DNA of 64,000 nt from Stegostoma tigrinum (taxonomy: Eukaryota), in the NCBI RefSeq assembly GCF_030684315.1, contig NC_081373.1, positions 47,878,066-47,942,065 of the forward strand, written 5' to 3'. A model generated the notes under the pieces. It searched no databases, was not told the DNA's origin, and saw only the letters and a list, made by a program, of their open reading frames with translations. The stretch's first letter is position 1. Every line of letters begins with the position of its first letter. A program made the position numbers and the translations under genes. This document shows, piece by piece, positions 1,776 to 45,207 of the stretch.

Positions 1776-1980
1776 TTCCCCAACTTGCCAGCAGATCAAT
1801 TTGAAATCACAGAAAATAATTTTTAAAAGATCTCATATGACCATAATAAGACATAGGAACAGAAATTAGGCCATTTGGCCCATCGTGTCTGTTCCGCCTT
1901 TCAATTATGGCCAATAAGTTCCTCAACTCCATTCTCCCACGTTCTCCCCATAATCCTTGATCCCCTTGATTATCAAGAAC

Positions 1981-14740: not shown

Positions 14741-14749
14741 AGGTCAGCT

Positions 14750-22915: not shown

Positions 22916-25900
22916 TCAACATGCATTGCCTAAACCTAAACATAATGTTCTGAATAGGGTCCAGCCAAAAATATGAACACTTGGATTTTCACCTATTTCA
23001 GGGCCCTTGAAATAAAAGTCAACTTTTCATGAAGCTATTAAATTATTTTTCATATCCATGCACTAGCTTTTAATAGGATATGCATTTAGACCTCTTAACA
23101 TTTGTTCCTCATATAATGCTATGATTTTTCTGCCAGAACTGACCTTTGTTTCAGTTCTATTTTGGTTTGCTTCTCTTAGCTAGCTATAAGCATTGCTATT
23201 ATGTAATTCAAAAATGAAGGAATGAAATGAGACTAACCAGAATATGTTCAATATTAAATACATGATTTCAAGAAGCAAAGTTTGAAAACAATGAAGCATT
23301 CTGTAAGTTAATTTACTCCCAGAAATAAGCTGAAGGTGAACTTTGTCAAGAAAAATCTCATGCTTTTAAAGCTTGAATTCTATTTTAGTAGTTAATGCAA
23401 TACATACCCACGAAAAACAAGGTCCAGTTAATTAGCTGTCTGCAAAATTGATGAAGGGATTAATTAAAAGTAGTCACAGGAAGAAAAGCAAGCTACACAA
23501 AGGGAAAGATTCAACTGGGAATTATTCCTTTTGGTGAGATGAAAGTAGGATAAGTAGCCAATCTGCTAAAAATTCTCAGTTTGAGGCCTGAGCAATTTTA
23601 ACAGCTGGACCTCATTTCCTTGATACCTTCAGCTATCAGCTTGAGACAAGTGGATGGAGACAGCTAAATGGATTGAGGCAGATTCAAATCATCTACCAAA
23701 ACCAAGGTATGCAGCACAAGACTGAGGCCTTTTTGTGGGATGTAGAGTAACAGTCAGCCCAGACATTTCTCGATGTGGTCCAGAAGACCTCTCGGGATCA
23801 TCTTGATCCTAAGGAAATTTTACAACTTATCTTGGAAGGTGCCTTTTCCCATACCAATATCTCAGTATATAAACTGCTCAGGAAGCCAACGGCATCAAGA
23901 GAACTTGCATATATAAGGGGAAAGCTCCTGTCTGTGACAGACAATTAACTCATCTGCCTAAAATAAAGGAATCAGAGCTAGTCTGAATCAGCAAGGGTAG
24001 AGCTACAAGTCTCTGCAGAACTATTAGTTCTTCTGAGTGGATTGAGCTAACATCCCCTCCAAAGTTTTCTGAGATGAATGTGTGAGAATATTGGGAAGAA
24101 AAGATATTTGTGTCGAGATAATAGAAATATGTGGACAAATTCACATATGGAGGCACCAAAATTTATGCAAACATCATCCCAAATAAACGAAATGAATGAT
24201 TGTCTGCTTAAAAAAAAGCGCAATAGGAAGGTAGCAGAAGTGGGCAGGCCATTTGTGCATATTTATATATCCTTGGTGAAAATCTTAAGTACTTAAAGAA
24301 ATAGAAGCAGAATTAAGCTACATTCCCATTTAGACCACTCTGATAGTCAACAAGATCATGGCTAATCTTTTACTTCAACTGCACCATCCTCTCTCACTCC
24401 AATAGCCCACAATTGCTTTACTGCCCTAAACACTTGGAAATCTCAACCTTGAATACACTCTTTGACTGAAGATCCAAAGCTATGTGGGGTAGGCCATGAC
24501 AAAAATTCACAAGCTTCTGATTAAAGAAATTTTCCTAATTTCAATCTTAAATGGCAGACTCCTTAACCCAAGACTTTGGGTCCTCAACTTGTCACCCAGG
24601 GGAAATAACCTCAGCCTGTCATATCGTGCCAATTCGAGTAAGAATGTTACATGTTCCAATGAAATTGCATTTCACACTTCTAAACATGAGATAACATAAG
24701 TTCAATCTACAAAATCACTCGTAGAACAGCCCCAGGAATTAATCCAGTCAACGTTTGTGGCACCCCCTAAGATGAGTATATTTTCCCACAGATAAGACAA
24801 AAAGCAAAAGTTTTTTTTAACATTTATTTGTGGGACATGGGCGTCGCTGGCAGGTCAACATTTTATTGTCCATCCCATGTTGCCCTTCAGAAGGTGGTGA
24901 TGAGCTGCCTTCAAACCAACGCAGTCCACCTGCTGTAGCTTTTCCACAATGGGTGAGGCCTGATCATAGCCCTTCATGATAGTAGCAAGACTTCTTCTCC
25001 CTATTCTGCAACCCCTCCCTTTAAAAACTAATAAATCATTGCTTTCAAATTGCTCACTGCACCTGCAGGTTGGCTGCCTGCAATTCATGCGTAAGGATAC
25101 ATAAACATTCATGAAAGCAAACTTATATTAATTTCTTACCTATTAAAAACATTCAGATTTCCCATTTTTTTTCTACTGAAGTAGATACTATTACGCTCTC
25201 TGATTTTTGGCTTCCTCTGCCACCTTCTTGCCCAGTTACTTGGTTAGTCTAAAGAAATAAACTGTGGAAGTGATTGCTGACAAATGTATTAAGAACATTG
25301 TAAAAATGTTCTACTAATTTTAATGTGGTGAAGGGAGAGTTGGAACTATAAAATTTAAAGGTGTCAGTGAACTTAAAGAAGCTAAAAGTAGCAGACTGAA
25401 GATAAATAATGAACATATATTCCCTTGTTTGGGAAGGTACCAAAGAAGAAATTTGGAAGGTTCTAGCACATTAGAAAAATGCCAACATTGTGAGCTAACA
25501 GAACTTTGATGATGGAGCTATTACTAAAATTATGTCAAAAGGCATCTTTGGGGAGTCGGTGGCATAAATATTCAGAAGAGTTGAAGTGTACAACAGATCT
25601 AGGCATCATTACAATCTCATTAGTTGAGTAGCAATAACTGATTCTTAGAAGTACATTTGAGATATGTGTAACATAATAATGGAATATGATACAGCCAGCC
25701 TGGATTTATAAGAAGATTTTGCTGAACAAACTTCCTTGATTATTTTCAGGTTTGGCACACCTTAAACAGATTGGTATTTTTATTTAACAAAATTTAATGG
25801 AATTTTAAAATGTGGAATGGTTTGCAGAGCAAGTTAAATCCAAGAAAACGATGAGCTGACACATGAATTGTAACACGCATGAGATGTTGAATGGAGTACT

Positions 25901-25927
25901 AAGGAAGGCCAATACTTTAGCCCTGAA

Positions 25928-26070
25928 ACAAAAACAGGAAATGTTGGAGAAACTCAGGAAGTCTGGCAGTATCTGTAGACAGGCACAGAATTAATGTTTC
26001 GAGTCTGATATGACTCTTCTTCAGCACTTTCAGACTTGCACCACCCACAGTACTTTGCTTTTATTTCAGC
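25928..26070. mobile_element. Penelope-like terminal-repeat remnant with hammerhead core on minus strand (25990-26024)
   Basis: Minus strand CTGAAGA-aGAGTCatatcaGACTC-GAAAC-ATT; 5-bp stem II; embedded in a very old CR1 (about 25560-26740). Confidence 0.6.
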
Positions 26071-26771
26071 ACTTGAGTACTTGTTGTTTTCAAACAACCT
26101 CAATAACAGATTGACTATAATCTTATTGGATTTGCTGATGGCCTAAACCAACATAATGATAAATTACGTTTTACATTCAAGTCAAAAACATGGAAACACA
26201 AGTATATAATGGATGGAAATGATTTACAGAGACATAGGAAAGGGTCATAGGATAATAGCAGTTATGTCAGTACACATTTCTGGACAGAAATGATAAACAA
26301 TTGAATTCCAGATAGATTTATATAGACCAGAACAGTCAAATATATCTATAGATTGGGCAAAGCTTTAAAATGCGCTGGTCAGACCACATTTAGTAAATTT
26401 TGGTCATCATGCCATGAAAACCATACATGCATTATGAAGGGTACAAAGTGTTAGAAATTGAACCCAAGTATAAAATGGATGAAGTAGAGAAACAATCTAA
26501 GAAGTTTACATTTTACTGTCATGAAAAAAAGACTAGTTAAAGGCGGTTACCAAACAGTGCAAATAAACAAGAGCAAGATTGTTATTTTATCATAAAGAAA
26601 AGTAGAATTTAAGCAAATAAATTATTAAAAAGTTTGCATTTAAATAGAAATTATGGAGATCTTTGCCCAATAAAATGGCAGTCACTTGGAATGCTATAGT
26701 ATTGAACGCAAAAAAATAGTACTTTTGTGAAGGTATGAGTTCTTGTAAAAGAAGCTCAGGAACAATAAAAG

Positions 26772-27068
26772 GGTGGCATCGTGGTTAGCACTGCTGCTTC
26801 ACAGCACAAGGAACTTGGGTTTGATTCCAACCTCAGGCAACTGTCCATGTGGAGTTTACATGTCCCCTGCTTCATGCTCCAGTTTCCTCCCACAGTGCAG
26901 GTTAGGTGAGTTGGCCAGACTAAATTGCCCAGCTATTTGCAAGCTAGGTAGCTTAGCCATGGGAAATGTAGGATTACACTGATGGTGTAGGGGGGTGGGT
27001 TTGGGTGGGATGCTCTTCAGAGAGTCAGTGTGGACTCAATGGGCCTGCCTTTATGCTCTAAGGAATTA
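26772..27068 (+). mobile_element. HE1-type SINE
   Basis: gtggttagcactgctgcttcacagcacaaggaacttgggtttgattccaacc (B box) plus the conserved core. Confidence 0.8.
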
Positions 27069-27899
27069 ATGCTTCCATTCAATAATAGGGATAAACTTCA
27101 ATAGAATAATTGATCATTTTCACATGGAACCTGCTTTAACTTTTTTTCTTGTCAACTCTAAACTGATAGAAATGCTTTGACTGAAAACAATGTTACCTGT
27201 ACAGAATCACATTGCTGGGATAAATTGCCAGTATGGTAATTCAGCAAAGATTAATTTACCATAACTTGGACATACTTATAATATTCTGTAGTACAAAATA
27301 TGTATGTAATTATGAATTGCTTGGACTGGAGAAGACAAACTTGTGAGACACAACTGACTTAAAAGCAGATAGAAATACAGTTTGACAGGAACCGACGTTC
27401 AAATTTTAAATATTAAATTTTTTTTTGACCAATCATTTAAAGCTTTGCTCAATGCTCCACAATTTTAGGACCATCAAAAGTTGCAAGTGAAACAGGCTAA
27501 AATGGTTAAACATTTTAGGTAAATATTTGCCCATGTCAAATCTTTCATGAAAAATGCCTCCAAAATGAAGACTTTGATGCAAATAATGTGGAGTTAATAA
27601 TGAGGCCAGAAATTATAATTTGGGGAAAAGAGGGGAATTCTTGAATTATAAGTTTTAAATTACATCATTAATATGTAAGGATTGGTAATGAAAGATGAAA
27701 ACAAAGTGAGACCTTAGCCTCATTAGTGTGAATGATGATGTTGTTGTCAAATTATTCAACTTTGCAGAAAAGTGAAATGGTGATGCTTCTATTGTCAAAT
27801 AGCTTGCCAAGATTTAATGTCCAGGTTCATTGGTGAGGAGTGGCCAGTTGGACAATAATGGACAGCTCAGACTCACTGAGCTACGTTTTAGCATTTGTT

Positions 27900-29753
27900 T
27901 TTTTTTGGAGTGGCCTCACCTGAAGAATAGTCAAAATATTATGCACCATATCCTACATTAGAATTTCACATAATATCACAGACAGAAAGAGAGAGCACAA
28001 GAATTCTGTGTAAGTTACGCATAAATCTGGTTAAAACTCGATTATCGTTGTGACTTTTTTTTGTTAAAATATTGCCATGATTTTAAAAAAATTTTGCCTT
28101 TTTTTTGTTAAATAGTCCAACTTTGCATAATTTATAACGTGACTTGCCATTTAATACATAAAAGCTGTATTTGTTGGTTAGTCAACACATCAATAACATC
28201 ATCCACTGGTGAAGGGAGAGAAATCCAGCTATCAGCTGTTAATCCAGAATCTGTCGAGATCTATTTTGAAATACATTAAATGAAATTGCAATCAGTTAAA
28301 TGAGTTTGCCTGTGCAAAGACATATGTCCTGAACACATTATTCTTAAACTGCAGCAAAGCCGTTATTCTGTTTAATTGTGGGGGATGTGATTTCATCACC
28401 AAAACGTCTGAGGAAAGCTTATTTTGTTTCTTTTGATCTCCCAACCACCAGGAGCAACGCGCCAGAAACACTCGCAGAGATTTTGGGAGATATCAGAATT
28501 ACCCAATGCAACAACCAGCTGGTAATTCATTAATTATTAAATCTCACCTGAATACTATCACAGGGGAAGTAGGATTCGAAAGATGTAACTATTTCAATGT
28601 ATGAAACTTGTCATTTTGGTTTTAAATCCGCTTTATGTAGCAAAAGTCAAGATGCATCAAAGCTCAAAACCAATTCTGTGTTTGTGAAAATGTTGAAAGG
28701 ATGTGCCATTTTTTATTCATTAAGAAGTATGCTACACTGAGGCTTGGAGGAACCTTGTTATCACCAGATTTGCTGAAATTTCACATTTCTAATTGCTGCA
28801 AATTAACTGATGTGCATGGACACCTATTCCCAAACTGAGAAACAATAATTTAATAGGCAGAAGAAAGGGCTGGGAAAAGTGGAGAGCTGTTCAATAAAAT
28901 ATTTTTGTTTCTAAGACAACAGCTGTGAAATTTGTTTATGGCAGTCGCATAAAACAGGCTTTCAGCATGATTTTTCAACATGCATGATCTTCTTTCTGCT
29001 GAAGTTCACACAATATTTTAAGCTCTTTTTGAAGACACATTTCGTAGTTTTGCTGTCATTTTTGCTCAGTCGATGTGAAGGATCTTGGCAATATTTTCCA
29101 AATCAATGTAAAATAAAAACTGGCACAGTGTACTTCAGCTCGCCGATTTGCTACAAGCCTGTCTCAAACTGCTGGCATAGACCAATTTTACCCCCAATAT
29201 ATTTAGCTGCTTCGATCAATTGCAGTACGCAATTGGGTTTGTCAGAATGAGGGCACAGTTTCAAATCAGTGAAATCTACAGGCATCTGCAAAAATGGATA
29301 AGAACACCATTACATTTAATGAAAAAGAACCAACTTACTTCAGAACCTCACAGAATGAACTTTTTAAAGTTTTACTTCAAAATGAATCCCAGGTAGGGCA
29401 AGTGTCAGTACTGAGTCTATTACTTATACTTCTATGAACAAGCAAATAATATCTTCCCTCTAACAATCTGTCATGCCTTATGAAAAGTTAGCAATATATT
29501 TTGTGAGGCTAATCAGCTAAATGATAACCACAGTCAGGCTGTGAAATTGCTGTCATATTAAGGGTCCTTTTTACATTTAAAGATTTTACCCATTTCTGCA
29601 AAAATCAGAATGTGGATGCTTGGTGAGCACATTGAATGAAAATCACATGAATCAAAATGTATGTTTAAGGTGAATAAATTGAAAATCATTGTTACTTTTC
29701 TACAGTACCCATAAAAAGTGAATTTTATCATTAGTAGCAATAAAAATTCTAAA
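27900..29753 (-). other. PCDH15: Probable PCDH15-CD3 3' UTR (distal end uncertain)
   Basis: AT-rich, nearly TE-free DNA directly after the stop; candidate minus-strand poly(A) signals AATAAA 28712-28717 and ATTAAA 28150-28155. Confidence 0.45.
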
Positions 29754-30329
29754 TCACAGTTTTGTCATTGGTATGTGAAGGTTATTCCAAGGTCCCATCC
29801 ACAGTTCTTCCTCATCTGATTGTGTCTGATCGCTGTGGGACTCAAATGACTCCTTAGCACCTTCACTGTCGACAGCTGATTCTTGGTTATCTGTGCTTTT
29901 CCCTCTCTCGTTCTTTGCCTTTACCGTGCTCAGTCTGGACAGGCAGCTGGCAGGCCCCATGCTGCAGGAGGCCATGGAGCTACTTGATGGTCTTGCATTG
30001 AGATTGTCATTGCTGCAAGAAGCTGTCGCATTGGCCAATGGATTGTTCAATGGGACCTTTTCTTCCTGTGTTGCTGCCAGTTTGTCTAGTTTCTTAAAAT
30101 GTTTTCCTACCCTCGCAGGCGAAGCTGCTTTCCCATTGGTCGGAGGGCAACTGCGTCTTGTTCTTACGATTGATCCATTTTGAGCAAAGTAGATATTACT
30201 GTTAATGTTGCTATGGTTATTTGGGTGCTTGATACGAATCCTTTGTGCTTCTGGTGCACTGTCCTCACCAGTTGAGCTGGTTTCATACTCACGATCCACA
30301 ATCAACTTCACTCGTTTATGGCGAGACCA
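29754..30329 (-). CDS. PCDH15: Protocadherin-15 terminal exon, CD3 cytoplasmic isoform (191 aa plus stop)
   Basis: Acceptor tcctcacacAG at 30330-30331, phase 0; WSRHKRVKLIVDREYETSSTGEDSAPE, NIYFAQNGSIVRTRR, SDEEELWMGPWNNLHIPMTKL* match recalled mammalian CD3 including the PDZ ligand. Confidence 0.96.
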   Translation of the reverse strand, partial: WSRHKRVKLIVDREYETSSTGEDSAPEAQRIRIKHPNNHSNINSNIYFAQNGSIVRTRRSCPPTNGKAASPARVGKHFKKLDKLAATQEEKVPLNNPLANATASCSNDNLNARPSSSSMASCSMGPASCLSRLSTVKAKNERGKSTDNQESAVDSEGAKESFESHSDQTQSDEEELWMGPWNNLHIPMTKL

Positions 30330-31223
30330 CTGTGTGAGGAGGAATAGAAATATTTTAGAAGGACTTGAGACATTATTCAGCTGAAATGTTAAAATATATT
30401 CTGAATTATATATTGGTTTCCTTGGATCAAAACTGGACCATATTGAAGAGTGTCCTCCTTTATCAAGAACAACATGTATTGACAAGCACAACACTTTGAA
30501 TGGAACAATGCCACAAAATGCATCAAGGAGGTAATTGGAAAATAGACATGAGGTCAGAGGGAGACAGATTGACAATGACTGATTGGATTCAAAGAGTGAA
30601 TTTGAAGGTGGATCTTGAAAGAAGTGTGAAGTAGCAAAGGGAAACCTTCAGAGTACAACCTAAGTTGTCACTATCAATGACGAAAGGAAGGAGAGAGACA
30701 GAGGAAGTCAGAGGTTGAGGAAAGTTGTTGAGTTGACGGACATTGGAGATGCAATTGACTGTAGATGGGGAAAAGGGCAAGATAAGAAGGACAGTTGATG
30801 GAAGCAACGTCACTAAAGTTTGATACCATAAGTGAACTTTGGAAAACTTCATGACTTCTAAAAAAGGTAATTTCACACAGCAATCTTAGAAAATCAACTG
30901 CATGCATGACGATAGGCATAGGTGTTCTGATAAATTTAAACATGCCAACACAACACAAAATGTTGAGTTCAGTGGAAGAATTGATCATATTGATCAATAT
31001 AAATTAAATAAATGCAACAAAAAATTGTTACTCAATACACTGATTCCAGAATAATCTGCTCAATCTTAGAGAAGCACCATATAACCACACAAGCAAAAGT
31101 CACAGCAAACATTTACAATCCAATTCTACTACTTTGCTGACTAAAAATAAACTCATTGGAAAAACAGCCATGGCAAATATCAAAACCACTCTTAGAAAAT
31201 GTTTTGAACACCTGTAGTTCCTT

Positions 31224-33113
31224 TTAAAACGATGTTCCTGATTCTGAGAGATCTTCACTCTCTTCTTGGAGAGCTCCTCCATCACTCCTGTTTTCATTAT
31301 ATTTGGAAGCTGTTCCTTTGCTTAAACTTTCACTCCCACTGGATGCAATGACTGTTTTATTATCTCCTGACTCAGAATAACTTAAGCTTTCCATTTGATC
31401 GGAAACAGCTGCACTTGTCAGACTATGGTTCATGCTACTTCTGCCACTAATGCTGGATTGTTCAGTACTCTCACTGGGACCCGATTGACTGGTATTACTT
31501 CCGGTGCTAACATTCTGGTCATCTGCCACCTGACTGATAGTGCTGATGCTTCGGCTAATACTTTCATTAGTATTTTGTTGACTGGCTGGTGACCTGGATA
31601 TTGTTCTGTCAGTCATACAACTAACTTCATCTTCACTGGCCTCACTTTCAACATCTTCATTCTCTATCTCAGAGATGATGCCTTGGTCTTCATCTGATTC
31701 TTCCTCAATGATATCCTCAGATCCACTGGCAAACGTTACTGATGTACTTACACTCGTTCCTCTTGTTGAAAACATTTCACGGGAACTACTGTTACTACTT
31801 CTTGTGGCAAATGTCCCTCTGCTTTTAATACTTTCTTGAATTGACAAGCTTGATTTTTCTCTAGGGCTGTTTTCATCTGCCGTTTTCTGACTGACCTCAC
31901 TATCTGACATCAAACTACTTTCTGTTGCTACTGACGTGCCCCTGCTTCCTGGGGACACTGTTTTGGAACTTGTTGCTTGTGTTGATATGCTGGATTCATC
32001 TGATACTTCAGCAAAACTATGTGACGCAGAATCAGTTTGAGATGATGTCCTTGACACAAAATCTTGACTTTCTGTACCAGACAATCTGATCTGTGAAGTT
32101 TGACCACTCTTAGAACTAGGCTTTTCAGAGGGTTCGCTTTTGGATTCTTTATCAGAACCAGACTCATCCTCTTTACCTTCCTCCGATTCTTCTTCCGCTG
32201 GTTCAGATTCTGTGACATCTTGTGTTGCATCTGATTCTTCATCATTTTCTTCATCTGAGTCCACAGTACTTTCATTTGTTTCATCTTGATCTAGCGTCAC
32301 TTTGAGATAGTCTTTACCTTCCATTTCTGAATGTTCAAGACTACTTACTGACAAATCATCTCCAGTCCTTTTAGAAGAATCACTTTTCTGCTGACGGTCA
32401 TTACTATCTTCTTCAGAAACATCGCTTTTTTCCTCATCACTCTCTGCTGTGACACTAATCGAGACTTTTGATTTTGTTTCTTCCTTTTCAGATATGCTAC
32501 TCGTCTGAGTCTTAGACTCATCTTCTTGTTCACTTTCAGCAACTGAAGTCTTACTGACGGAGCTTTCTGATTTTCGCCTGGGATGTAGCTGTTTAGAAAG
32601 CTTGATACTCTTCAACATTTTGCCCATTTTCTTTTTCTCTGTCGGCCTATCCATTGTTGACTTCTGAAAATAGTTCCCGTTAATGATCATACTTTCTGAG
32701 TCACCATTTTGCACACTATCTTGGCTTTCCACATGGTGCGCAGACACAGGTTTAGCATAACTAGAATCCTTGCCACTGCCCTTGACTTTCTGAAGTATCA
32801 TGGGAAATATTTTTGCTTTCTTCCATCGTGAGTGATATGAGATGGAAGGCTCCACAAGCTGCTTACTGCCTGCCTCTCCTTTTCTGGGATCTGTTGATAA
32901 TTTACTAATCTGCACCACACTCTTCAGCTTCCTCTTTCCTTCTTCACCCTGAACCTTTCCGGCTGCTTTTTTCTCTGCAATCTGTATGGTGCCTGTTTGT
33001 TCTGGGGCCCCACTTGAACCTAATGCCTCACCCCTTGATGTCCCTGCCTGAGCCTGATCTCCTCCTTCCTGCTTTCTGCCTTTCCTAATTGGACTTTTGC
33101 CTTGCTGTGTTCC
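31224..33113 (-). CDS. PCDH15: Protocadherin-15 terminal exon, CD2-type cytoplasmic isoform (629 aa plus stop, Ser/Glu-rich)
   Basis: Acceptor atttcAG at 33114-33115, phase 0, extends the 564-aa ORF by 65 codons; WKKAKIFPMILQKVKG and KDYLKVTLDQDETNESTVDSDEE match recalled mammalian CD2 blocks; ends GTSF*. Confidence 0.9.
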   Translation of the reverse strand, partial: GTQQGKSPIRKGRKQEGGDQAQAGTSRGEALGSSGAPEQTGTIQIAEKKAAGKVQGEEGKRKLKSVVQISKLSTDPRKGEAGSKQLVEPSISYHSRWKKAKIFPMILQKVKGSGKDSSYAKPVSAHHVESQDSVQNGDSESMIINGNYFQKSTMDRPTEKKKMGKMLKSIKLSKQLHPRRKSESSVSKTSVAESEQEDESKTQTSSISEKEETKSKVSISVTAESDEEKSDVSEEDSNDRQQKSDSSKRTGDDLSVSSLEHSEMEGKDYLKVTLDQDETNESTVDSDEENDEESDATQDVTESEPAEEESEEGKEDESGSDKESKSEPSEKPSSKSGQTSQIRLSGTESQDFVSRTSSQTDSASHSFAEVSDESSISTQATSSKTVSPGSRGTSVATESSLMSDSEVSQKTADENSPREKSSLSIQESIKSRGTFATRSSNSSSREMFSTRGTSVSTSVTFASGSEDIIEEESDEDQGIISEIENEDVESEASEDEVSCMTDRTISRSPASQQNTNESISRSISTISQVADDQNVSTGSNTSQSGPSESTEQSSISGRSSMNHSLTSAAVSDQMESLSYSESGDNKTVIASSGSESLSKGTASKYNENRSDGGALQEESEDLSESGTSF

Positions 33114-33509
33114 CTGAAATTATGAAAATGGGACTGGTATTAATCAAGTTATGCAGAATCATCATTGACAAACAAAACACTTCATTTTTAAGCATGACAT
33201 TCATTTCCATTGGTCATAGAAAGGAGGACTTACACTGCTATTACATCTTATATATCCTCATTAATTCCCAATGTTTTTTCTAGCCACTTAATTGCTTTTG
33301 AAGTGTCATCCCTGTTGTTATGTAGGTAAGCATGACTGCCAAATTGCAAAGTCCAATAAATAATTGCCTGTTCCATTTCATATTGGATGAGAGGTAAATA
33401 TTGGCTGTAACAGAGGGAAAGTTTCAATCTTCAAACATATTTATATCAAATGCAAATGCTTTTAAGGATAGAGAGGGCAAAACAAGACCTAATCCAAGTT
33501 TTACTTGTT

Positions 33510-34230
33510 CACAGGATGTGGTGTCACTGGCTAGGCTGGCAATTATTGCCAATCCCTAATTGCCCCTAAGAATATAGTGGTGTGCTCCATTCTTTAACCA
33601 CTGAGGTCCATGAGGTGCAGATACATCCACAGTGCTGTTAGGAAGAAAAATTCAACGTTTCGATCCAGTGACAGCAAAGGAATGGCTGTTGGAAGTCAGG
33701 CAGCTCGCTGGAGGGGAATGTTGGTGTTCTCATCTATCTGCTGCCTTTGTCCTTTGGTGGTAGAAGTTATGGGTGTGGACAGCACAGAAAGAGAGCGTTC
33801 AGTCCAACCAGTCCATGCTGAACATAATCTTTAAACTAAACTATTTCCATCTGCCTGCTCCTTCTCCTTTTATGTACTTATCCAAATATCTATTAAATGT
33901 CACAATTATACACACATCTGCCACTTCCTCAGGAAGTTCATTCCACACGTGACCACTCTCTGTGTAATAATTTGCCCCTCATGTCTTTTTTAAAATTCTC
34001 TTCTTTCACTTTAATAATGTGCTCAGTCTTGAAATCCCCCCTCCTAGGAAATAGACAACTACCATTAACACTATCCATACCTCTCATTATTTTAAAAACC
34101 TATATAAGGTCACCTCGCAACTTCCTAAGGTCCAGTGAAAGATGGCCCACCCTACGCAGCCTTTCTTTATAACTCAAACCTTTCATATCCGGCAACATCC
34201 TGGTAAATCTCTTCCAAACGCCCTCCAGCT
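33510..34230 (-). mobile_element. L2-type 3' fragment followed by CR1 3' fragment (intronic)
   Basis: ggatgtggtgtcactggctaggctggcaattattgccaatccctaattgccc; CR1 tail-region motifs tataaggtcacctcgcaac and ggcaacatcctggtaaatct. Confidence 0.6.
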
Positions 34231-34616
34231 GGATGGTCCATCGGAAAAGATTTGGTGTGTTGATTTGAACTGATATGGCTTATTGCCACAAAGCACAGAT
34301 TGAGTTATAGATTACAGGAATGAGTATATCATTACTGGCAGCACACATGAACATATTGAAGAAATTAAATAGTTAAAAGAAATGCAGTGTAAAACATTTC
34401 CTGTAAATGCTTAGTATTTTTCACCGACAGGAGGAAAAAGGAGAGAGGCCATGGGTAATATGTGTTAACATGTTAGCCAGTGATGTGCTTCTACCCTTTC
34501 ATCTCAAATCGGATGGTGGGGATAAAACTTCATGACTCTAATGGCTAAAAGAACTTAAAATTTAATACTGCCTGACATGCAGAAAGTCAGACAGGAAATA
34601 AAATTCCATGGATCCG

Positions 34617-35110
34617 TAGAATCCCAACAGTATAGAAACAGGCCCTTTGGCTCAACAGGTCCACAGCAACTCTCAGAGCATCCTGCCCAGACCCAGCCCT
34701 CTGTAACCCACCTTGAACACTATGGGCAATTTAGCCTGGCCAATCCACCAGCCTGCACATCTTTGGATTGTGGGAAGAAACCAGAGTACACCCACGCTGA
34801 CAGCGACCAAACTCCACTCAGACAGTTGGCCAAGGGTGGAATCGAACCAAGGCCCCTGGCACTGTGAGGCAGCAGTGCTAACCACTGAGCCACCGTGCCA
34901 CAAGAATACCACACAGTTGCCCAAGGCTGGAGTTGAACCCAGGTCTCTGGCATTGTGAGACGACAATATTAACCACAGTGCTGCCGTGTCATCCAAACCA
35001 GGGGATGATCACAGAATCCCTACAGTGTGAAAACTGACCATCACGTCCAAACTGACTCTCCTAGGAGTATCCCACCCAGACCGACCTCCTTACTCTATCC
35101 CTAAAACCCT
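34617..35110 (-). mobile_element. HE1-type SINE with a second tandem tRNA head (34908-34991) and an extra tail fragment
   Basis: Two successive cagttg(g)cccaagg.tggartygaacc...ctggca.tgtgag head units. Confidence 0.75.
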
Positions 35111-36543
35111 CATACATTTGTGCTTATAGAAGGAAGTACAGAAATAAGGAAAATGTGAGGAAAACAAGCGATTGGTGTTAAAGGTGCAGCTACATGTGGC
35201 TGACATCTAGAAAGTTTGCAACAAGCTGAGACAATAAATTGCCTACTGAAATAAATTTATTTTATATTGTTAATGGCAAAACTGGGCAGAATTTCCAGCG
35301 AGTGGCAATTTCATGCTGACTGCCATTCCAGTCTTTTTGTTTTTATGAAGAAGGGTCCTCAAACCCAAAAGCTCTACTACCAAGGGTCACAGACAAGGGC
35401 TAGGCAATTTACAATTGAGATGAGGAGAAATTTCATCACCTAGGAGAGTGGCAAGTTTGTGGGATTCTCTGCTACAGAAAGCAGTTGAAGCCAAAACATT
35501 GAATGTTTTCAAGAAGCAGTTAGATATAGTTCTTAGGGTTAAAGGGATAAAAGGGTTTGGGAGAAAGCAGGAACAGCAGGCTGAGATGGGTGATCAGCCA
35601 TGTTCATATTGAATGGCCTACTCCAGCTCCTACACTTCAGATGTTTTGTAAGAGATGATTGGTATGAAAATTCGTGTTCTACTTTCCTGCTGAAAACAGT
35701 GTGAATGTATTCTATCCTGCTATGTTTATTGCCTAGAAGAACAAAGGTTCCTGGGAACACCATCACCTGCAAATTTCCCATCAACTTTGAGAGTTGGAAC
35801 TATATCATTCCAACTTCATGGTTGCTCTATCAAACTCCTGGTCCTTCCTCCCTAACAACACTATGGGTGTACCTACACCAGATGAATGGCAGCAGTTCAG
35901 GAAAGTAGCAACTCGGGAGGGGGAACAAATATTGGCTTTGTCAGGGAAGCTCATGCCCGATGAGAAAATTAGACAATGGAAGCTAGTCTCCATTTATAAG
36001 GTCATGCGTGATCCAGATAGTATTTCACAACAATCCAGAAACTTCCATAACCCTTTCATGGTGCCAGACTGCAGATTGCATGAATTGATTCTGTTTTGTA
36101 ACTTTTCAAAATGGGATATTAATTCCCCCGAATTCTTAATCTTAATCTGAACCACTTTGACCTAGATGCTGAGGTGGCTCGCAAGGTTTCATGGATTTAT
36201 CAGATTCTTTTACTCCTATTTTATCCATCAATAAGATGGATTAAAATAAATGAACTACACTTTGGATATTTTGTAACAGATGATTTCAGAATTAAATTCG
36301 CGTTCTACTTTAATGCTGAAAACAATACGAATGTATATGTCAAGAAGGTATGGAAAATACCAACTCCTACATTATACCTTATGACAAAAAATACTGCTCT
36401 TCCTATTTTGAGTTAGACAGTAAAACAAACCTTTGACGCCATGTCTTTCAAAATACTTTATATTTTCCGTTCAAAATATTTTATTCCATGAAAATTAGTA
36501 TGTAAAAATCAAAATGAAAGACGTATCTTCTGCATATATCTAC

Positions 36544-36679
36544 CTCGGCATCTGCATTTGATCCCTGTGGGCTGTAATAATAGCCACCATCATCTTCCAT
36601 GACCACCTCTCCATAGTCATCATACATTCCAGAGGGAGAGATTAATCTTCGGCGACTGCCATACTGCGGGACCTCGTAC
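36544..36679 (-). CDS. PCDH15: PCDH15 exon shared by CD2 and CD3 (136 nt, phase 2 to 0)
   Basis: ccaattctAG|G TAC GAG...GCC GAG|GTagat; YEVPQYGSRRRLISPSGMYDDYGEV matches recalled mammalian YEMPQYGSRRRLLPPAGQEEYGEV. Confidence 0.94.
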
Positions 36680-37057
36680 CTAGAATTGGGGTCAGAAATC
36701 GATGCATTACTATCTCTTGTTTGAGACAAAAAAAAATCCACGAGATATTTAAACTCTCTTTCCAGTCAGCTCACTTATCAACAAAAGTTGGCAGATGCAA
36801 TCAATCTAACTCTGCGTAGGTTAGGGCTTATTTAAGTTTGGAACGGTTGTCGGTGCTCATGGCAAAGCTATTTTCAATAAAGCTTACTGCAAACTCAGAG
36901 TTGCTTTTTCATGTGAGAGGCATCATTGCTCAAGAAGTAAAAGTGCACAATTAAAGATCACATTATCTAACTTGAATTTTTGTACAACTTCTGAATAAAA
37001 CATTGTAAAGCATGCCTGTAGTAGGGTCCAATAACCAATTTCCATCATGTTAATACT

Positions 37058-37253
37058 GTGTGAAGCTGGATAAACACAGCAGGCCAAGCAGCATCAGAGG
37101 AGCAGGAAAGTTTGACATTTTGGGTCAAGACCTTTTTTTCTGAAGAAGAGTCTCGACCCGAAAAATCAAAATTTCCTGCTCGGCCTGCTGTGTTCATCCA
37201 GTTTCACATCATATTATCTCAGATTCTCCAGCATCAACCGTTCCTACTGTTAC
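37058..37253. mobile_element. Palindromic mini Penelope-derived insertion with degenerate 17-bp TSD
   Basis: tccatcatgttaatact (37041-37057) versus tccaccatgtaaatact (37254-37270); inverted arms; CTGAAGA...GAAA at about 37140-37163. Confidence 0.75.
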
Positions 37254-37949
37254 TCCACCATGTAAATACTTAGCAGCAAAGATTTAATAACACAGACAAA
37301 AAATATAGGAATACAGCAGTATAACAAAATATTTTGTAATCTTAGATAAGATTGAGCATATTTAAGTCATCTTTAACTTTTGTACAGAACAACAATAGCT
37401 GATATTCATAAAAAGGAATAGTAACAAATAATATCAGAGCTTTGCCAAACTATATTTAAATGGTCTAGCTGTTGTAGAAAGACATCCCTCAGTATTAATT
37501 GACAGGGCGTTTGCGATCAAAGTGTCTTGGTTAAATAAACCAAAGCCAAATTCAACAATTTTCCCAGTTTTTACTTATTGACAGGATTCAACCTTAGGTA
37601 TATAATCACAACTAAATTGTGGAAATGTTCCACCTTATGAACATTTTAACTTTTAATTCCTGTATGATACATTATTTAAACTTTACCAGTTATATCACGT
37701 TGAATCAAATAAATCATTGGCTTGAACCTTACTTTTTTTTTGGCTAAGGCTGAGTTGTGTGAACTTTTTGATAGGGTTCGTTTCACTGTGATGCCAAGCA
37801 AATTCTCTCGTCCTAGCTTGCCAAACTTGCCTCATTAAGTTACCAACCACACCCCATGGTATCTCTCACTTTCAATTTCTGCTCCATCTTTCCTTCCTAG
37901 AAGAACTGACCACTCCACCAGCGTCCTTTGCATTTGCAAGACATTTTAA

Positions 37950-39260
37950 AGCCCGTTGTGGAGCTGGTCAAACTTCAGCCCAAAGCTGCCCTGCACAATT
38001 GTTGACATTTGCCCTGGACATGGCAGAGGGGGAAATTTTATGTTTGTTTTGTGTGAAGGGATCTGCAGTCCCTGTTGGACAAGCTTTTTATTCAGACGGG
38101 ACTTCCTCTTCCTCCAGGATCTGTAGGGCAGGCCACAACACCAGAACATACCAACTTGGTCTGAGGTTGCCATTAGATTCAAACAGTTTCAGCTGTCTGG
38201 AGGGTTGGCCACCACTGCAGGAAGAAGGTCAATCTCCTTCTCCACTGTGCCAGTGTAAGGTCCATGACCTTCTCTCTGATACTCCACAATTATTCCATCT
38301 CTGGTACTGTAGCCATCTCCAACCAAGGCTCATCCCCACCAGCCTGCAACTTTTTGCCATTTGCTGCCACCCATTCCAACCCCCAACACGACTAATCCTG
38401 TCTGCTCTCCGTGCTCCCTATTCACTCCATCAGAACACTTCCCCACTTGCAGTCACAGCAATAGCTGTGCTGCCCATTTACATCTCCCCAGTAGCTGCCT
38501 CTCTTTTATTCCAGGAGGGAGGCAGCCTGGAATTAGGCAGAAGGCTCGAAGCAGCTGGTGGGCTGCCCCATATTTGGGAGAGGGTCCTGACTCTGATTGC
38601 ACCAAGCAGGGCCTGGTCTGGTATCGGAGGCTACCCTTGACTTGACTGACGATTCCTGACAGCCGAGAGAGCATCCCAGCTTTGTGTCTTTGCTAAATAG
38701 CATGGCAACATAACAGTAATGTGATCCTGGTGTTGCCAGCTGAGGGGACAAAGTGACACAAAGGCAAGGCAAGGTAATGCAAGGAGGGAATGCTGTGAGC
38801 ATGCAGGCAGGGTGCTACTATAGCAAGTGAACTTGATGGGATACAACCTGGTCCAGTTTATGGGCTGGGTGCGTGTCCCTGGGAGCCCAGTGTCCTTGCT
38901 GCAACATTACAGTGATATTGTCAGCGCGGCCTGAGTCACAGCATTGAAGTGCAGAAGGTACCTGTAAATGGGCTGGAGATGTAGCATATGGGTTATTGGA
39001 GGCGGGCACATGTCAGATGCCAAAGTCCTTGGATGTGGAATGTGAATGGCTGGTATTCATGTAGAACGCCCGGAGATGTTGGCACTCAGTGCCCAACATT
39101 GAGTTCATTTAGAGCTAGCAGTGAGCTGAATCAGCAAGTTTCCTGCACTTGCTTCCATGACAAGTTTACTGATCCCTAGCTTCTTTGCCAAACGTTGGTA
39201 AGATGAGAATCTGAATGCCAATGAGGCACGTTGTGGTGTTAAACAAATGGTTAACCAGCA
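37950..39260 (-). mobile_element. Probable decayed Harbinger-associated (Myb/SANT partner) region
   Basis: GC-richer island with overlapping nonsense ORFs; minus-strand tggaagcaagtgcaggaaac resembles a frameshifted WKQCRK; weak. Confidence 0.35.
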
Positions 39261-41054
39261 ACAATGACTGTCAACTAGCATCTCACTGCTGCCTAGAATC
39301 AATCTCGTCACAATGCTTGTGAAAATTTTATATCGATGGACAGAGAGGACCTTCCCGCACGAGTTGCCCCATTCCATTACAAATCAGACATCCATAAGAT
39401 CCTGATACGACATTCAACTATTAAATTTTAACATTTTTGGATCTAGTACAGCTTTAACAAAGACTGTTCAAATGGTTCCTGTGTTCACAAAATGCTCCAA
39501 AGAGATTCTATACTGTCACATAAGGCATCCAGTTCATCTGTGCTAGCTCACAAGGACAAGCTCATGCAAGTTCTGGAATCATTGCTAAATGGAAGGCAAT
39601 TAAGGTAGAAATTCATTGCAGACAGTCACACAGACCAGGCAATATTAGATATTTTGTCTGTTATGCACAATATCAGATATTTAGTTCCGCTGCTGTTAAT
39701 TTAATTAGACATCAAGTGCTGTGAACAACAGGCAACCGAATCAATATCATCCTATCACTGCTCGACATGAATTTCTATCCCATTGACTTTAATCTATACG
39801 AATGCTGTTATGACTTGTTGGCTCTAAAAAAGGGCTCTCATACTAAACTCATCTGACCAGTCTCAGGCACTAATATTGACTGCAAATTTATATTCAGAAT
39901 ACAGTTACTGCTGAATTCCTATGGTCTGTTAAACTGCTTTTAATTCTCAGATAATTCAAACTGTTTGAAATATAGTCTCTCTGAGAGCCACATGTAACCT
40001 TCATTAACTCATGCATAAATTTAGTACAATGATGAAGAATGAAGGTAAAGGGGTATGAATTAATTTGGTTTCTTCGATCTCAAGGTATTGATTCCAATGT
40101 CGTTACAACATAATTTTGTTTGTAAAATACTGCCTGTATATCTCTGTATCAGATAGTTTCAGTTTGCTTAGAATGTAACTATCTCTACTGAACACGATTG
40201 CTATTCCAAACTTCTTAGGAACTGAAATTTCACCTCAGAAATTCAGGTCTGAGAAAGTCTCTTGAAGGTTAGGACAGCACGGAATCATTTGATGATCTGA
40301 TGCAATCTTATTTATGAGTAGATAATTGCAAACCTTGAATAAAATTGCTTCAGTATCTTAAATCATTACTGCTAACCTTGTACATGATTAGCCCATTAAT
40401 CCATGTAGCATCATTCTTTTTTCATTCCTTGCACATTATGTTTCTCCTCATTATTAGTGCAGGTTAGCCATGTTAAAATGAAAGTCAATGCAAATGGAAC
40501 TTTTGTGATAGGTGTAATATTCACAGGCCAGGCATGGGGGTTGGATTACCCATGGTTGTGGTCTGTTGGTATGGGCAAGGATGGTTATTGAATTCTTCCT
40601 GAGCAGTAAGCAGTCCTCGAAATGTATAATTCAGGTATCAAATGGTTCAATTTGCCCTTATTTAGTCACTATGGAACAGAGAAGAAGTCCATTGTGTGCT
40701 GCAACAGGAAAAATCAATAAAGACAGGTCAACACATACTGAACAGCAGCCCAGGCATTTATTAACAGTCATAGATGGTCACTGATCTCAATCCTAATTGT
40801 TATGACTCATGTGAATTTACAAAGTGCAGTTACTGAACATTGACTGAAGGCTTTCAAAAGCCCAATGCCTTTATCTTGGTAAGGTCAACAAGAAGGTTCA
40901 TTTTGGATGTCCACATGATTCGATTTTCATGCACGTCTTAACGTTGATGTGAATTTCACTCAAACATAACTCATGCAAATATGTAAGTGGAGGTCTTAAG
41001 GCACTTGGACAGCCCTGACTATAATTATAGCAATTTTTCATAAACTTGCTCAGC

Positions 41055-41257
41055 TGTGTTGTGACACATCTCAGGAGCAGGTGGTGTTTGAACCTGGGCT
41101 GCCTGGCTCAGAGATAGGGGCTACCACTGTACCAAGAGAGACCACAGAATTTTTTCTGGATTTGATATTCACCATCTGCTATGGTGAGATTCAAACTCCA
41201 GACCTTACTCTGAGATTATAGATGATTAGTCCAATGACAATACCTCTATATCACTGC
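41055..41257 (-). mobile_element. Two adjacent tRNA-SINE head fragments
   Basis: Minus-strand B-box-like ggttcaaacacc and gagtttgaatctc; second matches the SINE at 42478 and 63818. Confidence 0.55.
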
Positions 41258-42059
41258 CTCTCTCTCTCCACCAAGAGCTTTCATGCCTATTTTTAGGCCC
41301 AATCTCAAAATACACTGGAACTCAGCACCATAACCTCCGCTCATGGGCTCCACTGCCCATTGGATTCATGTAGATTGCCAATGGGCCCGGATCCTGCACT
41401 CTGCAGTACAGAGAAAGATAGAAAATAGGGGCAGCAGTAGCAGGCCATTCAGCCCTTCGAGCCTGCTCTGCTATTCAATGTGAACAGAGTTGATCATCCA
41501 ACTAAGTATCCTATTCCCACTTCCTCTCCATACCCTTTGATCCCTTTATCCCTAAGGATGATACATAACTCCTTGTTGAAAACATTCCACATTTTGAGCT
41601 TAACCGTGCAATCCGTGGGGATGCCGAGTGGCATAGCACATTGCCATCGGAGCAAACACCCATCTTAGACAACATGAGCTTGAGGTCTGCCTGACAGGAA
41701 AGTGGTTCTTGACATACAAACATATCAGTCAGGAGTGAAACTAGGCCATTCAGCTCTCAGCCTCATCAGTTCCTCAAATAATGCCACGTTGATCCGGTTA
41801 TAATCACAAATCCACATTTCCGCCTGCCTCTAACAACCTCTCGTCCCCTTGTTTAAAAAGAATCTATCTACCTCTGCATGAAAAATATTCAAGACTCTGC
41901 TTCCAATGCTTTATCAGGAAGAGATTTCCAAAGACTCATGACCTTCTCGTCTGAAAAGACGTCAGGTGATCTTTGTTTTAAATAGGTAGCCCATGATTTC
42001 TTTAGTAGCAGTGACGTCCTCATGTCGGACTCTCCCCTTCTTCCTTATCTGAGAAGACA

Positions 42060-42445
42060 AGTGTTTGGTCTGCTCCCCACTTTTTGAAGGTCACACCCCA
42101 TCATTGAACTACAATGTGCAGTACAAAACCCAAAGCCATGATACTGAAAACACTGTCCAGTGCCTGCTTTTCCTGAAGTAGCACAGACAATGAAAGTGCG
42201 TCTTCAGAAGACCATTCAATGATGGCCCTCATGTTTGCATGGGCAGCATGGTAGCGCAGTTGGATATTTGTCTTTGAGTTACTTCCTGGGGTTATTAGCC
42301 ACGCCCTCTGGGCATTCACCTTTGTCATCCACAAGACAGCATTGGCAATGCTATTGGAAATAAACCTTCGAGGAGCTTGGGACCTGTGCCGAATGTCAGG
42401 GTTGTAACAACTCACTGGATAACGGGCCACCACCAACAGGATTTG
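42060..42445 (-). pseudogene. Decayed Harbinger transposase C-terminal part
   Basis: VVARYPVSCYN (cf. ARYPGSCHD) and WLITP...QLRYHAAHANMRAIIE (cf. WLMTP...RYNxAHxxTRxxIE). Confidence 0.7.
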
Positions 42446-42477
42446 TTGCCTGTGATGACAATTGAGATGGGCTAGGC

Positions 42478-42790
42478 CACCATTTATTGCCCATTCCTAA
42501 TTGCTCAGCAGGCAGTTAAGAGTCAATCATATTGCTGTTAGTCTGGAGTCACATGTAGGCCATAACAAGCAAGTACAACAGATTTCCTTCTCTAAAGAAC
42601 ATTAGTGAATCAAATGGGTTTTTCTGACAATCAGCACTGGTTTCATTGTCATCATTAGACTCTTGACTCCAGATTCTTTATTGAATTCAAATTCCACCAT
42701 CAGCCATGGTGAGATTTGAACTCAGGTGCTCAGAAAATTACCCTGGTTGCTTGGTTAATAGTCTAGTGATAATACTACTAGGTCATTGCT
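42478..42790 (-). mobile_element. tRNA-derived SINE with L2-like tail
   Basis: Reverse complement matches 63818-64000 (ctagtagtattatcact...gttcaaatctcaccatgg...gagtctaatgatgac). Confidence 0.7.
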
Positions 42791-42966
42791 TCGCAGTTAA
42801 AATTCCCCCTGAAAAATGAGTAAGACAAACAGTTGTTAGCCCAAATGAGCTAGTCCTCTTTCCAGGTGAGTAGTGAGTTGTTTGTAGTTGAAAATCCCTT
42901 TTATTTCTCTGGACATTGTCACTAAGTGAATGCTATAATTGGAAAATTAAGGTAAGAAAACAATAG

Positions 42967-43149
42967 AGATAATGGGAACTGCAGATGCTGGGGAATCCGA
43001 GATAAGACAGTGTGGAGCTGGATGAACACAGCAGGCCAAGCAGCATCTTAGGAGCACAAAATCTGATGAAGGATCTAGGCCTGAAATGTCAGCTTTTGTG
43101 CTCCTAAGCTCGGCCTGCTGTGTTCATCCAACTCTACACTTTCTTATCA
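42967..43149. mobile_element. Palindromic mini Penelope-derived insertion with perfect 14-bp TSD
   Basis: taagaaaacaatag at 42953-42966 and 43150-43163; inverted arms; CTGATGAaggatctaggcctGAAAtgtc at about 43063-43090. Confidence 0.85.
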
Positions 43150-43326
43150 TAAGAAAACAATAGCTTAGTTTAAAACAATGGGTTATGATTTGTAATGGCT
43201 TTGCTCTATATTCATTATACATTAGAAGAATCGAATGTTCCTTTCCTAAACACCCTTGGTATGGTTTTGTGAAGGCAAACATGATATGTTGGTAGAAGTG
43301 TTCAAAACTTCATACGGGGGGCTTAC

Positions 43327-43400
43327 CCAGGTTCATAATTGTAGTATTCCTGTGCATAGTAGTCCTGGCCAGGATCAATCCCTGATTCCATGGAGAGTTC
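43327..43400 (-). CDS. PCDH15: PCDH15 74-nt exon ELSMESGIDPGQDYYAQEYYNYEP(G), phase 0 to 2
   Basis: tggcAG|GAA...CCT GG|GTaagc; GG+G joins in frame to exon 36544-36679; resembles recalled vertebrate ELSMESGIDPGQEY. Confidence 0.9.
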
Positions 43401-43601
43401 CTGCCATTCAGACAAAACGCATAATGGGTATTTGTGCTCATGTGTGACCATATTAATCTTTTGTCATCACTAACCACAAATACATATCAGGAGCAGATAA
43501 AGGATTGGAAAAGTTGATATTCTGAATGCAGAGAAATGTACATCTGCTAACTTGCCAGAAGGTTTTGATGAATTATTAAAACAATAGATAAACTATTGTA
43601 C

Positions 43602-43640
43602 CTCAGGTCTAAGCAGCGAGGGCCTCAGTAATTGCTGTTG
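43602..43640 (-). CDS. PCDH15: PCDH15 39-nt exon QQQLLRPSLLRPE, phase 0 to 0
   Basis: Long polypyrimidine tract and ttccAG acceptor, GAG|GTacaa donor; in frame with neighbours; resembles recalled LLRPSLLKPE. Confidence 0.85.
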
Positions 43641-43794
43641 CTGGAAAAGAGTTGTAAGAAAGAAAAGAACAAAAAGGAGGAGGTGGTAAAAGAGGTAATA
43701 TTTGGAAATCTTTGGTTGACTTTTAAGCATCAGATATCTGAAGTAGTAGGATATACAGAAAGATGAATCATCAGCAAAAAAGTGAGATTCTTAC

Positions 43795-43816
43795 CTCCTG
43801 TTGTCCATATCCCCTC
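43795..43816 (-). CDS. PCDH15: PCDH15 22-nt microexon (x)RGYGQQE, phase 2 to 0
   Basis: ttctttgcAG|GAGGGGATATGGACAACAGGAG|GTaaga; 22+39+74 = 135 nt keeps the frame. Confidence 0.75.
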
Positions 43817-44960: not shown

Positions 44961-45207
44961 GATAGTATGCACTGTCGATGCTGGAGATAACAGAGCATGG
45001 AGCTGGAGGAATATAGCAGGCTAGGCAGCATCAGAGGAGTAGGAATGCTGACATTTCCTATTTCTGAACTCCCCTTCCCCTGCCCCCATTTTCGAACTCC
45101 CTTCCCTTTCCCCCATTTCTGGAGAAGGGTCCTGACCCGAAACATCAGCTTTCTTGGTCCTCTGATGCTGCCTGGCCTGCTGTGTTCCTCCAGCTCCAAA
45201 CTGTGTT
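44961..45207. mobile_element. Palindromic mini Penelope-derived insertion with degenerate 17-bp TSD
   Basis: atctcacatcaggctga (44944-44960) versus atctcacaacagactga (45208-45224); inverted arms; internal duplication of about 29 nt; CTGGAGA-aGGGTCctGACCC-GAAAC at about 45119-45143. Confidence 0.75.

Follow-up and report, generated by a model that had tools for sequence, protein, structure and literature searches.

PCDH15-CD2 in Stegostoma tigrinum

The window analysed here, a stretch of 64,000 nucleotides from the shark Stegostoma tigrinum (contig NC_081373.1, positions 47,878,066 to 47,942,065), contains on its minus strand part of the PCDH15 gene, whose cadherin and transmembrane exons fall outside the window. 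We securely identify one of its exons, 33113-31224, as the shark orthologue of the terminal exon that encodes the CD2 tail of PCDH15 (mammalian exon 38), because position, phase, two collinear sequence blocks and the ending of the protein agree when taken together. This exon very likely specifies a long form of CD2, itself likely ancestral, which would be reached by alternative use of 3' splice sites and provide a predicted disordered anchoring tail with short motifs and a PDZ ligand. Comparison of the sequences further indicates that mammals likely shortened this tail and that sharks did not lengthen it, contrary to an initial annotation of this DNA, which had described the shark exon as expanded.

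The exon lies within PCDH15, occupies an in-frame alternative terminal position and is homologous to mammalian CD2. It is free of stops for 629 residues (1890 nt) before a TAA, and its protein ends in G-T-S-F; the other two frames contain 18 and 90 stops. When the exon was shuffled 1000 times by mononucleotides, its longest open frame reached no more than 284 aa (mean 114), and 100 shuffles of positions 25001-45000 yielded at most 178 aa. The acceptor is AG in phase 0, and the upstream exon shared by CD2 and CD3 ends in GAG/GT, likewise in phase 0. On the minus strand, the order is 36679-36544 (shared), 33113-31224 (CD2) and 30329-29754 (CD3), and the CD2 identity is supported because this arrangement agrees in position and phase with that of mammalian exons 37-38-39. 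Exon 37 of mammalian PCDH15 has been described previously (PMC7532178). Translation, splice sites and exon order thus confirm the open exon with a phase-0 acceptor that the initial annotation had placed between the shared exon and CD3. The exons, as placed by tblastn with PCDH15 proteins (four upstream exons, CD2 and CD3), and the stretch between the two terminal exons are as follows:

31224..33113, minus strand: terminal coding exon of PCDH15-CD2, 629 codons and a stop, product predicted to be disordered, with 30% Ser+Thr and 19% Asp+Glu
36544..36679, minus strand: exon common to CD2 and CD3 (equivalent of mammalian exon 37), 136 nt, AG/GT
29754..30329, minus strand: PCDH15-CD3 terminal coding exon, 191 aa, end M-T-K-L, phase-0 AG acceptor
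43327..43400, minus strand: upstream cytoplasmic exon, 74 nt, AG/GT
43602..43640, minus strand: upstream frame-neutral exon, 39 nt, AG/GT, not in the Scyliorhinus model
43795..43816, minus strand: upstream micro-exon, 22 nt, AG/GT
30330..31223, minus strand: 894 nt separating the stop of CD2 from the acceptor of CD3

All placed exons have AG acceptors, and the internal ones have GT donors. The shared exon is identical to Scyliorhinus PCDH15 in 45/45 residues, and CD3 is 92% identical to that of Scyliorhinus versus 80% for the ray Narcine, which supports the shark origin of the DNA.

Homology to CD2 of other jawed vertebrates

A search with aa 60-300 of the shark tail retrieved 106 proteins at E ≤0.001 among 2367 candidates (best E 1.5e-94). 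PCDH15-type domains occur in every one of the 106, whose sources are cartilaginous fishes (catshark, ray and chimaera), ray-finned fishes (sturgeons, paddlefish, gar, bowfin, bichir and teleosts), frogs, turtles, squamates and birds. When the bird block 2 served as the query, seven eutherian models and an echidna were recovered at weak E-values, and further searches supplied additional eutherian members. A hidden Markov model (HMM) built from 38 non-mammal sequences gave 35.8-43.5 bits for 10/10 CD2 tails of eutherians and 52.4 bits for that of the echidna, as opposed to -1.8 for the best of 1100 locally shuffled copies. Its proposal that CD2 predates the split between sharks and bony fishes also holds, since the isoform occurs in cartilaginous fishes (chimaera, ray and catshark) as well as in ray-finned fishes (paddlefish, gar, bichir and teleosts) and tetrapods (frogs, turtles, squamates, birds and mammals). 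Searches with the CD2 tail gave 0 matches by sequence in the PDB and 0 families in Pfam.

These homologues refute the idea that the frame is a chance open reading frame or a dead exon, to which we assign next to no probability. The sequence is indeed purine-rich and of low complexity (A 38%, G 25%), and all four differences seen in read contigs are missense. However, its 629 codons far exceed the shuffle maximum, its acceptor is canonical and in phase, and it is open and motif-conserved across jawed vertebrates. The contigs in question derive from four runs of genomic-type behaviour, which represent at most two samples of one study and possibly the source sample itself. They cover the CD2 exon at the depth of the adjoining unique DNA and show no indel within it. 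Among the joints listed for these four runs, a list dominated by repeats, there was no exon-exon joint.

Conserved motifs within the tail

The two CD2 signature blocks and the G-T-S-F end reported in the initial annotation are all present, with the blocks 170 aa apart, and the alignments delimit several additional conserved elements:

32898..32933, minus strand: basic block 0, aa 61-72, conserved among non-mammals, with no counterpart seen in eutherians or the echidna model
32778..32825, minus strand: block 1, aa 97-112, WKKAKIFPMILQKVKG, 11/16 identical to owl monkey CD2
32586..32771, minus strand: between-block motifs, aa 115-125, 143-152 and the basic amphipathic 161-176, all absent in eutherians
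32436..32474, minus strand: KSKVSISVTAES motif, aa 214-226
32247..32315, minus strand: block 2, aa 267-289, KDYLKVTLDQDETNESTVDS, 15/21 identical to owl monkey CD2, the best conserved stretch
31689..31721, minus strand: acidic island, aa 465-475, aligning across non-mammals within the fast-changing Ser/Thr tail
31224..31238, minus strand: class I PDZ-type C-terminus G-T-S-F plus stop

The motifs at aa 61-72, 115-125, 143-152, 161-176 and 214-226 and the island at 465-475 align from chimaera to birds. A remnant of the motif at aa 115-125 is present in echidna, and the pattern at aa 214-226 occurs in 38/38 non-mammal species tested and in echidna, but in 0/10 eutherians. Judged by this conservation, the region between the blocks is not filler. 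Its N-terminal portion is rich in positive charge (27 basic versus 11 acidic residues in aa 61-185), and three segments (aa 58-68, 101-111 and 161-171) rank within the top five 11-mers of the shark tail in amphipathicity, presumably comparable to calmodulin- or lipid-binding helices.

The T-S-F end, which the initial annotation contrasted with mammalian T-A-L, is not a shark trait but usual for non-mammals, and bird, turtle, lizard and frog models mostly end in D-S-T-S-F. Complete models were picked by their CD2-type end, so that the number of class I ends does not constitute an independent test. The shark C-terminus combines a Thr at position -2 with a hydrophobic Phe as the last residue, and Phe is tolerated as the last residue of class I PDZ ligands. 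Teleost ends (e.g. P0092) follow the pattern S-E-G-x-x-T-A/S-F/L and line up with mammalian S-E-G-Y-N-T-A-L. The aligned segment includes the Ser and Glu mutated in a study of NHERF-1, and the corresponding S-E of the shark lies one place nearer the C-terminus.

Tail length and block spacing across vertebrates

The CD2-specific part of the protein comprises 629 residues in Stegostoma, 717 in Callorhinchus, 635 in paddlefish, 647 in gar, 648 in bichir, 635 in a darter, 657 in a stickleback, 576 in the loggerhead turtle, 510 in a sparrow and 282 in the owl monkey. Both blocks were found in 158/229 collected proteins. Their spacing is 121-170 aa in 143/144 non-mammal models (isoforms counted, shark protein included), 53 aa in the single echidna model and 39 aa in 13/13 eutherian models, the latter agreeing with the value of about 40 aa given in the initial annotation. 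By group, it amounts to 169-170 aa in chondrichthyans, 158-162 in non-teleost ray-finned fishes, 134-143 in teleosts, 151-153 in frogs, 162 in turtles, 127-133 in squamates and 134-142 in birds. The Ser/Thr tail after block 2 is 166-344 aa long in bird, turtle, lizard and frog models, compared with 363 aa in the shark. The species table excludes duplicate isoforms as well as eight bird models whose ends are aberrant (P0054, 55, 57-61, 71), models without block 1 (P0106, 108-110, 113) and the Naja model P0117, although the latter was counted in the spacing.

With the accepted vertebrate tree used to polarise tail length, these comparisons give us high confidence that a long, Ser/Thr-rich CD2 is ancestral to jawed vertebrates and that the mammalian form is derived, because all but one of the non-mammal models are wide-spaced and the tails of ray-finned fishes and chimaera are as long as that of the shark or longer. 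The simplest reading of the sequences is one long ancestor followed by stepwise contraction in mammals. Echidna would then be a true intermediate, which we consider probable: its model retains remnants of two intervening motifs, combined with eutherian-like block flanks and a short shared exon. The opposite scenario, in which an originally short CD2 grew longer in cartilaginous fishes, perhaps to serve the ear, lateral line or electroreceptors, is largely refuted and has very little probability left. It is true that no other group compared exceeds chondrichthyans in block spacing and that none of the complete tails is longer than that of Callorhinchus. However, gar, bichir, paddlefish and turtles come close to this spacing with 158-162 aa, ray-finned tails equal or exceed that of the shark, and the motifs between the blocks can be aligned among fishes, frogs, turtles, lizards and birds, such that a short ancestor would require several identical independent gains.

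Several side observations concern the models themselves. The shared exon encodes 45 aa in the shark versus about 36-37 aa in echidna (P0120) and eutherians (P0124), and in mammals its tyrosine-rich end is replaced by a glutamate run. The Naja model P0117 (UniRef) has a spacing of 35 aa and thus mimics mammals, whereas another elapid shows 133 aa; its short spacing is probably a false-intron artefact. Finally, four stand-alone teleost proteins named 'uncharacterized' or 'LEO1-like' (P0220, P0223, P0225, P0229) consist of diverged CD2-like tails that lack a T-x-F/L end where the end is seen and likely belong to a second paralogue.

Composition, predicted disorder and phosphorylation-related motifs

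Counted from block 1 onwards, the tails of eutherians contain 24-27% Glu and 19-21% Ser+Thr, at a net charge per residue of -0.17 to -0.19, whereas the 38 non-mammals have 11-17.5% Glu, 29-35.5% Ser+Thr and a net charge per residue of -0.03 to -0.14. The shark tail comprises 186 Ser/Thr residues and 32 S/T-x-x-D/E sites, compared with 53 and 18 in the owl monkey. With 12.2% Glu and a charged fraction of 0.31, it is not an acidic polyampholyte of the eutherian type, for which values of 24.7% and 0.39 have been reported (10.64898/2026.09.17.752191). The same preprint describes mouse CD2 as an expanded disordered monomer and proposes a PxIxIT motif for mammalian CD2; the alignment in its accessible part covers six placental mammals and no non-mammal. 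The shark tail is likewise predicted to be disordered: AlphaFold2, run with a 40-row alignment, returned a mean pLDDT of 42.6, a pTM of 0.20, no residue above 70 and no secondary-structure elements, the few stretches above 50 mostly corresponding to block 1, aa 159-172 and block 2. The initial view of a long disordered linker that pinpoints constrained motifs therefore stands with respect to the predicted disorder and the delimitation of the motifs, but not with respect to a greater length specific to sharks.

The proposal of a PxIxIT motif raises the question of whether the conserved blocks could be calcineurin docking sites (PxIxIT- or LxVP-like) in all jawed vertebrates, given that KVSISVT and DYLKVT bear a superficial similarity to such sites. 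We regard this as improbable. With the loose expressions of a published study (10.1101/632547), neither motif is found in the shark tail; that for PxIxIT matches 10/10 eutherians but 1/38 non-mammals (a gecko), and that for LxVP matches 0/10 eutherians and 1/38 non-mammals, in the latter case not at block 2. At the level of sequence, eutherians appear to have lost several conserved motifs while acquiring a PxIxIT match and becoming rich in Glu. Tyrosine phosphorylation was considered as well, but a role for it was set aside, because bundle polarity is normal in mice in which all six CD2 tyrosines are mutated (PMC12370195).

Possible splicing patterns and transcript structure

Among the 160 collected PCDH15 proteins with block 2, 49 are CD2-CD3 chimeric models, including several RefSeq X isoforms from birds and turtles (examples among all chimeras are P0002, P0011, P0039, P0063 and P0120). 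Such models could mean that the CD2 exon is mainly an internal cassette, with a donor near its 3' end that is joined to CD3 to give a hybrid tail ending in M-T-K-L, and the shark exon indeed contains two phase-0 GT sites, at 31895 and 31751, that match 7/9 positions of the consensus. However, the chimeric junction, which could be located in 45/49 models, lies anywhere from 109 to 438 aa past block 2 and varies even among songbirds. Moreover, there is no interruption of the frame before a conserved T-x-F/L end, and such an end requires translation to run as far as the CD2 stop. Little probability therefore falls to a predominant internal cassette. The 49 chimeras are probably predictor artefacts, with some room left for a genuine hybrid in birds or turtles.

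The 894 nt that separate the two terminal exons (30330-31223, minus strand) contain no AATAAA or ATTAAA, only variant hexamers, and the first canonical poly(A) signals lie downstream of CD3, at 29320-28717. The CD2 message may thus read through CD3 as its 3' untranslated region. Further upstream, the 39-nt exon at 43602-43640 (minus strand), which is present in the Callorhinchus and gar models but missing from that of Scyliorhinus, is likely a cassette exon. A common exon preceding 43816 was not found within 43817-64000, and the intron upstream of this position is probably longer than 20 kb. In the same interval, the list of open reading frames, which was inspected without a CD1 query, contains no CD1-like frame of at least 120 aa on the strand of the gene.

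Proposed mode of action

We propose that the shared-exon donor at 36544 is joined to either 33113, giving CD2, or 30329, giving CD3. The CD2 tail would then act as an unfolded Ser/Thr- and acid-rich spacer with about seven short conserved motifs, tethering PCDH15 links to PDZ scaffolds and motors via its C-terminus and blocks 1 and 2. By analogy with mouse CD2, the T-S-F end may bind PDZ scaffolds and thereby couple kinocilial or tip links to the actin core. Consistent with this idea, the last 11 residues of mouse CD2 bind the NTR-PDZ1-Hp1 region of whirlin at 8.5 uM (PMC7532178), its PDZ motif binds NHERF-1 PDZ1 under phospho-control, with loss leading to high-frequency hearing loss (PMC13733988), and MYO3A transports mouse CD2 (10.1101/2022.02.25.482032). 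Blocks 1 and 2, which are retained from shark to primate, could represent the core partner-binding sites, whereas the extra motifs of non-mammals may bind further partners. In the mammalian stem, the exon would have been cut roughly in half, with most between-block motifs deleted and echidna as an intermediate, and eutherians would subsequently have gained their Glu richness and PxIxIT match.

It is tempting to extend this scheme and to speculate that the hearing-essential CD2 tail of mammals is a rebuilt remnant. In this view, CD2 would for the greater part of jawed-vertebrate evolution have been a Ser/Thr-rich tail of 400-700 aa, with about seven motifs and a phosphorylation-set charge, before it was repurposed to serve the tip link in an adult cochlea that lacks kinocilia. 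Mammals might have deleted basic motifs serving persistent kinocilial links, halved the chain and converted phosphorylation-dependent charge into fixed glutamate, and eutherians might have added a calcineurin site. This extension is tentative and, in our estimation, rather unlikely. If true, blocks 1 and 2 would be the only ancient binding sites and mark the core CD2 ligands.

Chances are about even that the exon, albeit intact, is functionally minor in fishes, acting at kinocilial links or in non-sensory tissue, and that its tip-link role is a mammalian acquisition. The initial annotation mentioned only CD1 and CD3 from zebrafish, which is outdated: CD2 is annotated for both pcdh15a and pcdh15b and has been measured by quantitative reverse-transcription PCR. 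According to that study, CD2 transcripts are detectable but never the major isoform in eye or ear, CD3 dominates in the ear, and a role of CD2 in kinocilial links is offered as the authors' own conjecture (PMC13443151). Mouse CD2 is needed for the tip links of mature auditory but not vestibular hair cells, and in both mice and patients its loss impairs transduction in the auditory system and leaves that of the vestibular system unaffected (PMC4119359). On the other hand, the share of a transcript need not track its importance, and blocks 1 and 2 are common to fishes and mammals. A minor role in fishes is compatible with the long-form CD2 tail proposed above, as it concerns the site of action only.

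Several points weigh against our interpretation. Most comparison sequences are predicted models. The whole-tail local alignment of the shark sequence to four eutherian tails gives scores of 163-186 versus shuffle maxima of 159-169, one of the four falling below its maximum. It is marginal because acidic composition dominates, and the significance of the eutherian homology, as judged from sequence, rests on the two blocks. The evidence from echidna is one chimeric gene model, and the spacing of 35 aa that false introns probably produce in Naja means that a short spacing can be a modelling artefact. CD2 of marsupials, platypus, coelacanth, lungfish and cyclostomes was not retrieved by name in protein searches, and the timing is therefore coarse and lacks an outgroup root before jawed vertebrates. 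A phmmer search with aa 60-295 against 1.84 billion representatives likewise gave 11 matches, of which the named ones are jawed fishes and five bear no species name, with no cyclostome identified. In addition, a low pLDDT by itself is no proof of disorder, and the NHERF-1 study defines the ligand end as V/L, whereas the shark tail ends in F (PMC13733988). Lastly, we infer the inclusion of the CD2 exon in shark transcripts from genomic sequence.

Collectively, the shark exon is the expected orthologue and unremarkable among non-mammals, and it does not reveal a shark-specific adaptation. Its value is comparative: within the mammalian tail of roughly 280 aa, it singles out a PDZ end and two short blocks as the parts retained from the last common ancestor of jawed vertebrates. 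These three elements represent small, testable baits for the CD2 ligands called for previously (PMC4119359). The high glutamate content and the PxIxIT motif stressed in the 2026 preprint (10.64898/2026.09.17.752191), by contrast, are eutherian traits and not ancient, and zebrafish or chick CD2 should not be taken without caution as an exact stand-in for the human isoform. What deserves to be kept is the reversed polarity together with the motif map, and the Naja model is a warning for model-based length comparisons.

Other elements in the window

Two near-identical LINE-type retrotransposon frames are located at 50587-53163 (plus strand) and 3-1832 (minus strand), with RVT_1 in both and an endonuclease in the first. 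Repeated fragments on both strands of 14019-16103, which have no Pfam match at E 0.001, presumably resemble the GIY-YIG endonuclease of Penelope-like elements.

Comparison with known CD2 isoforms

A cartilaginous-fish CD2 is already annotated in the form of a RefSeq model from Callorhinchus milii (XP_042192779.1), a predicted protein whose name does not carry a CD2 label. It shares the 170-aa spacing and the motifs of the shark tail and is 60% identical to it over aa 60-300, but it comprises 717 aa and ends in V-T-S-L. The CD2-type RefSeq and UniRef models of birds, turtles, lizards and frogs have all motifs in common with the shark but a shorter Ser/Thr tail. Avian PCDH15 isoforms were reportedly dealt with by Ahmed et al. 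in 2006, who may already have noted the length difference. In the literature searched, which left out most subscription papers, we found no paper that describes shark CD2 or the contraction of mammalian CD2. A study of positive selection on mammalian PCDH15 places it in the extracellular part and, in its accessible text, mentions CD2 only in a reference (PMC8594068).

Zebrafish pcdh15a-CD2 and pcdh15b-CD2 are further examples of a long fish CD2, transcribed in eye and ear at minor levels; the supplement of the corresponding study gives 2123 aa for the pcdh15a-CD2 protein versus 1783-1790 aa for human CD2 in 4/5 rows (PMC13443151). In the teleost models compared here, which do not include the zebrafish's own sequences, the spacing is narrower than in the shark, and block 1 has diverged in spiny-rayed fishes.

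Mammalian CD2 (exon 38; mouse Q99PJ1-10, human Q96QU1-4) occupies the same site between the shared exon and CD3 and has its own stop. As in the shark, block 1 precedes block 2, disorder has been either predicted or measured, and a Thr at -2 is combined with a hydrophobic last residue. The shark tail differs from it in its length (629 versus about 282 aa), its block spacing (170 versus 39 aa) and its longer shared exon (45 versus 36 aa). It also contains less Glu (13% versus 24-27%) and more Ser+Thr (32% versus 19-21%) from block 1 to the end, carries a weaker net charge per residue (-0.10 versus -0.17 to -0.19) and ends in T-S-F instead of T-A-L. Finally, it possesses five extra conserved motifs and has no PxIxIT match.

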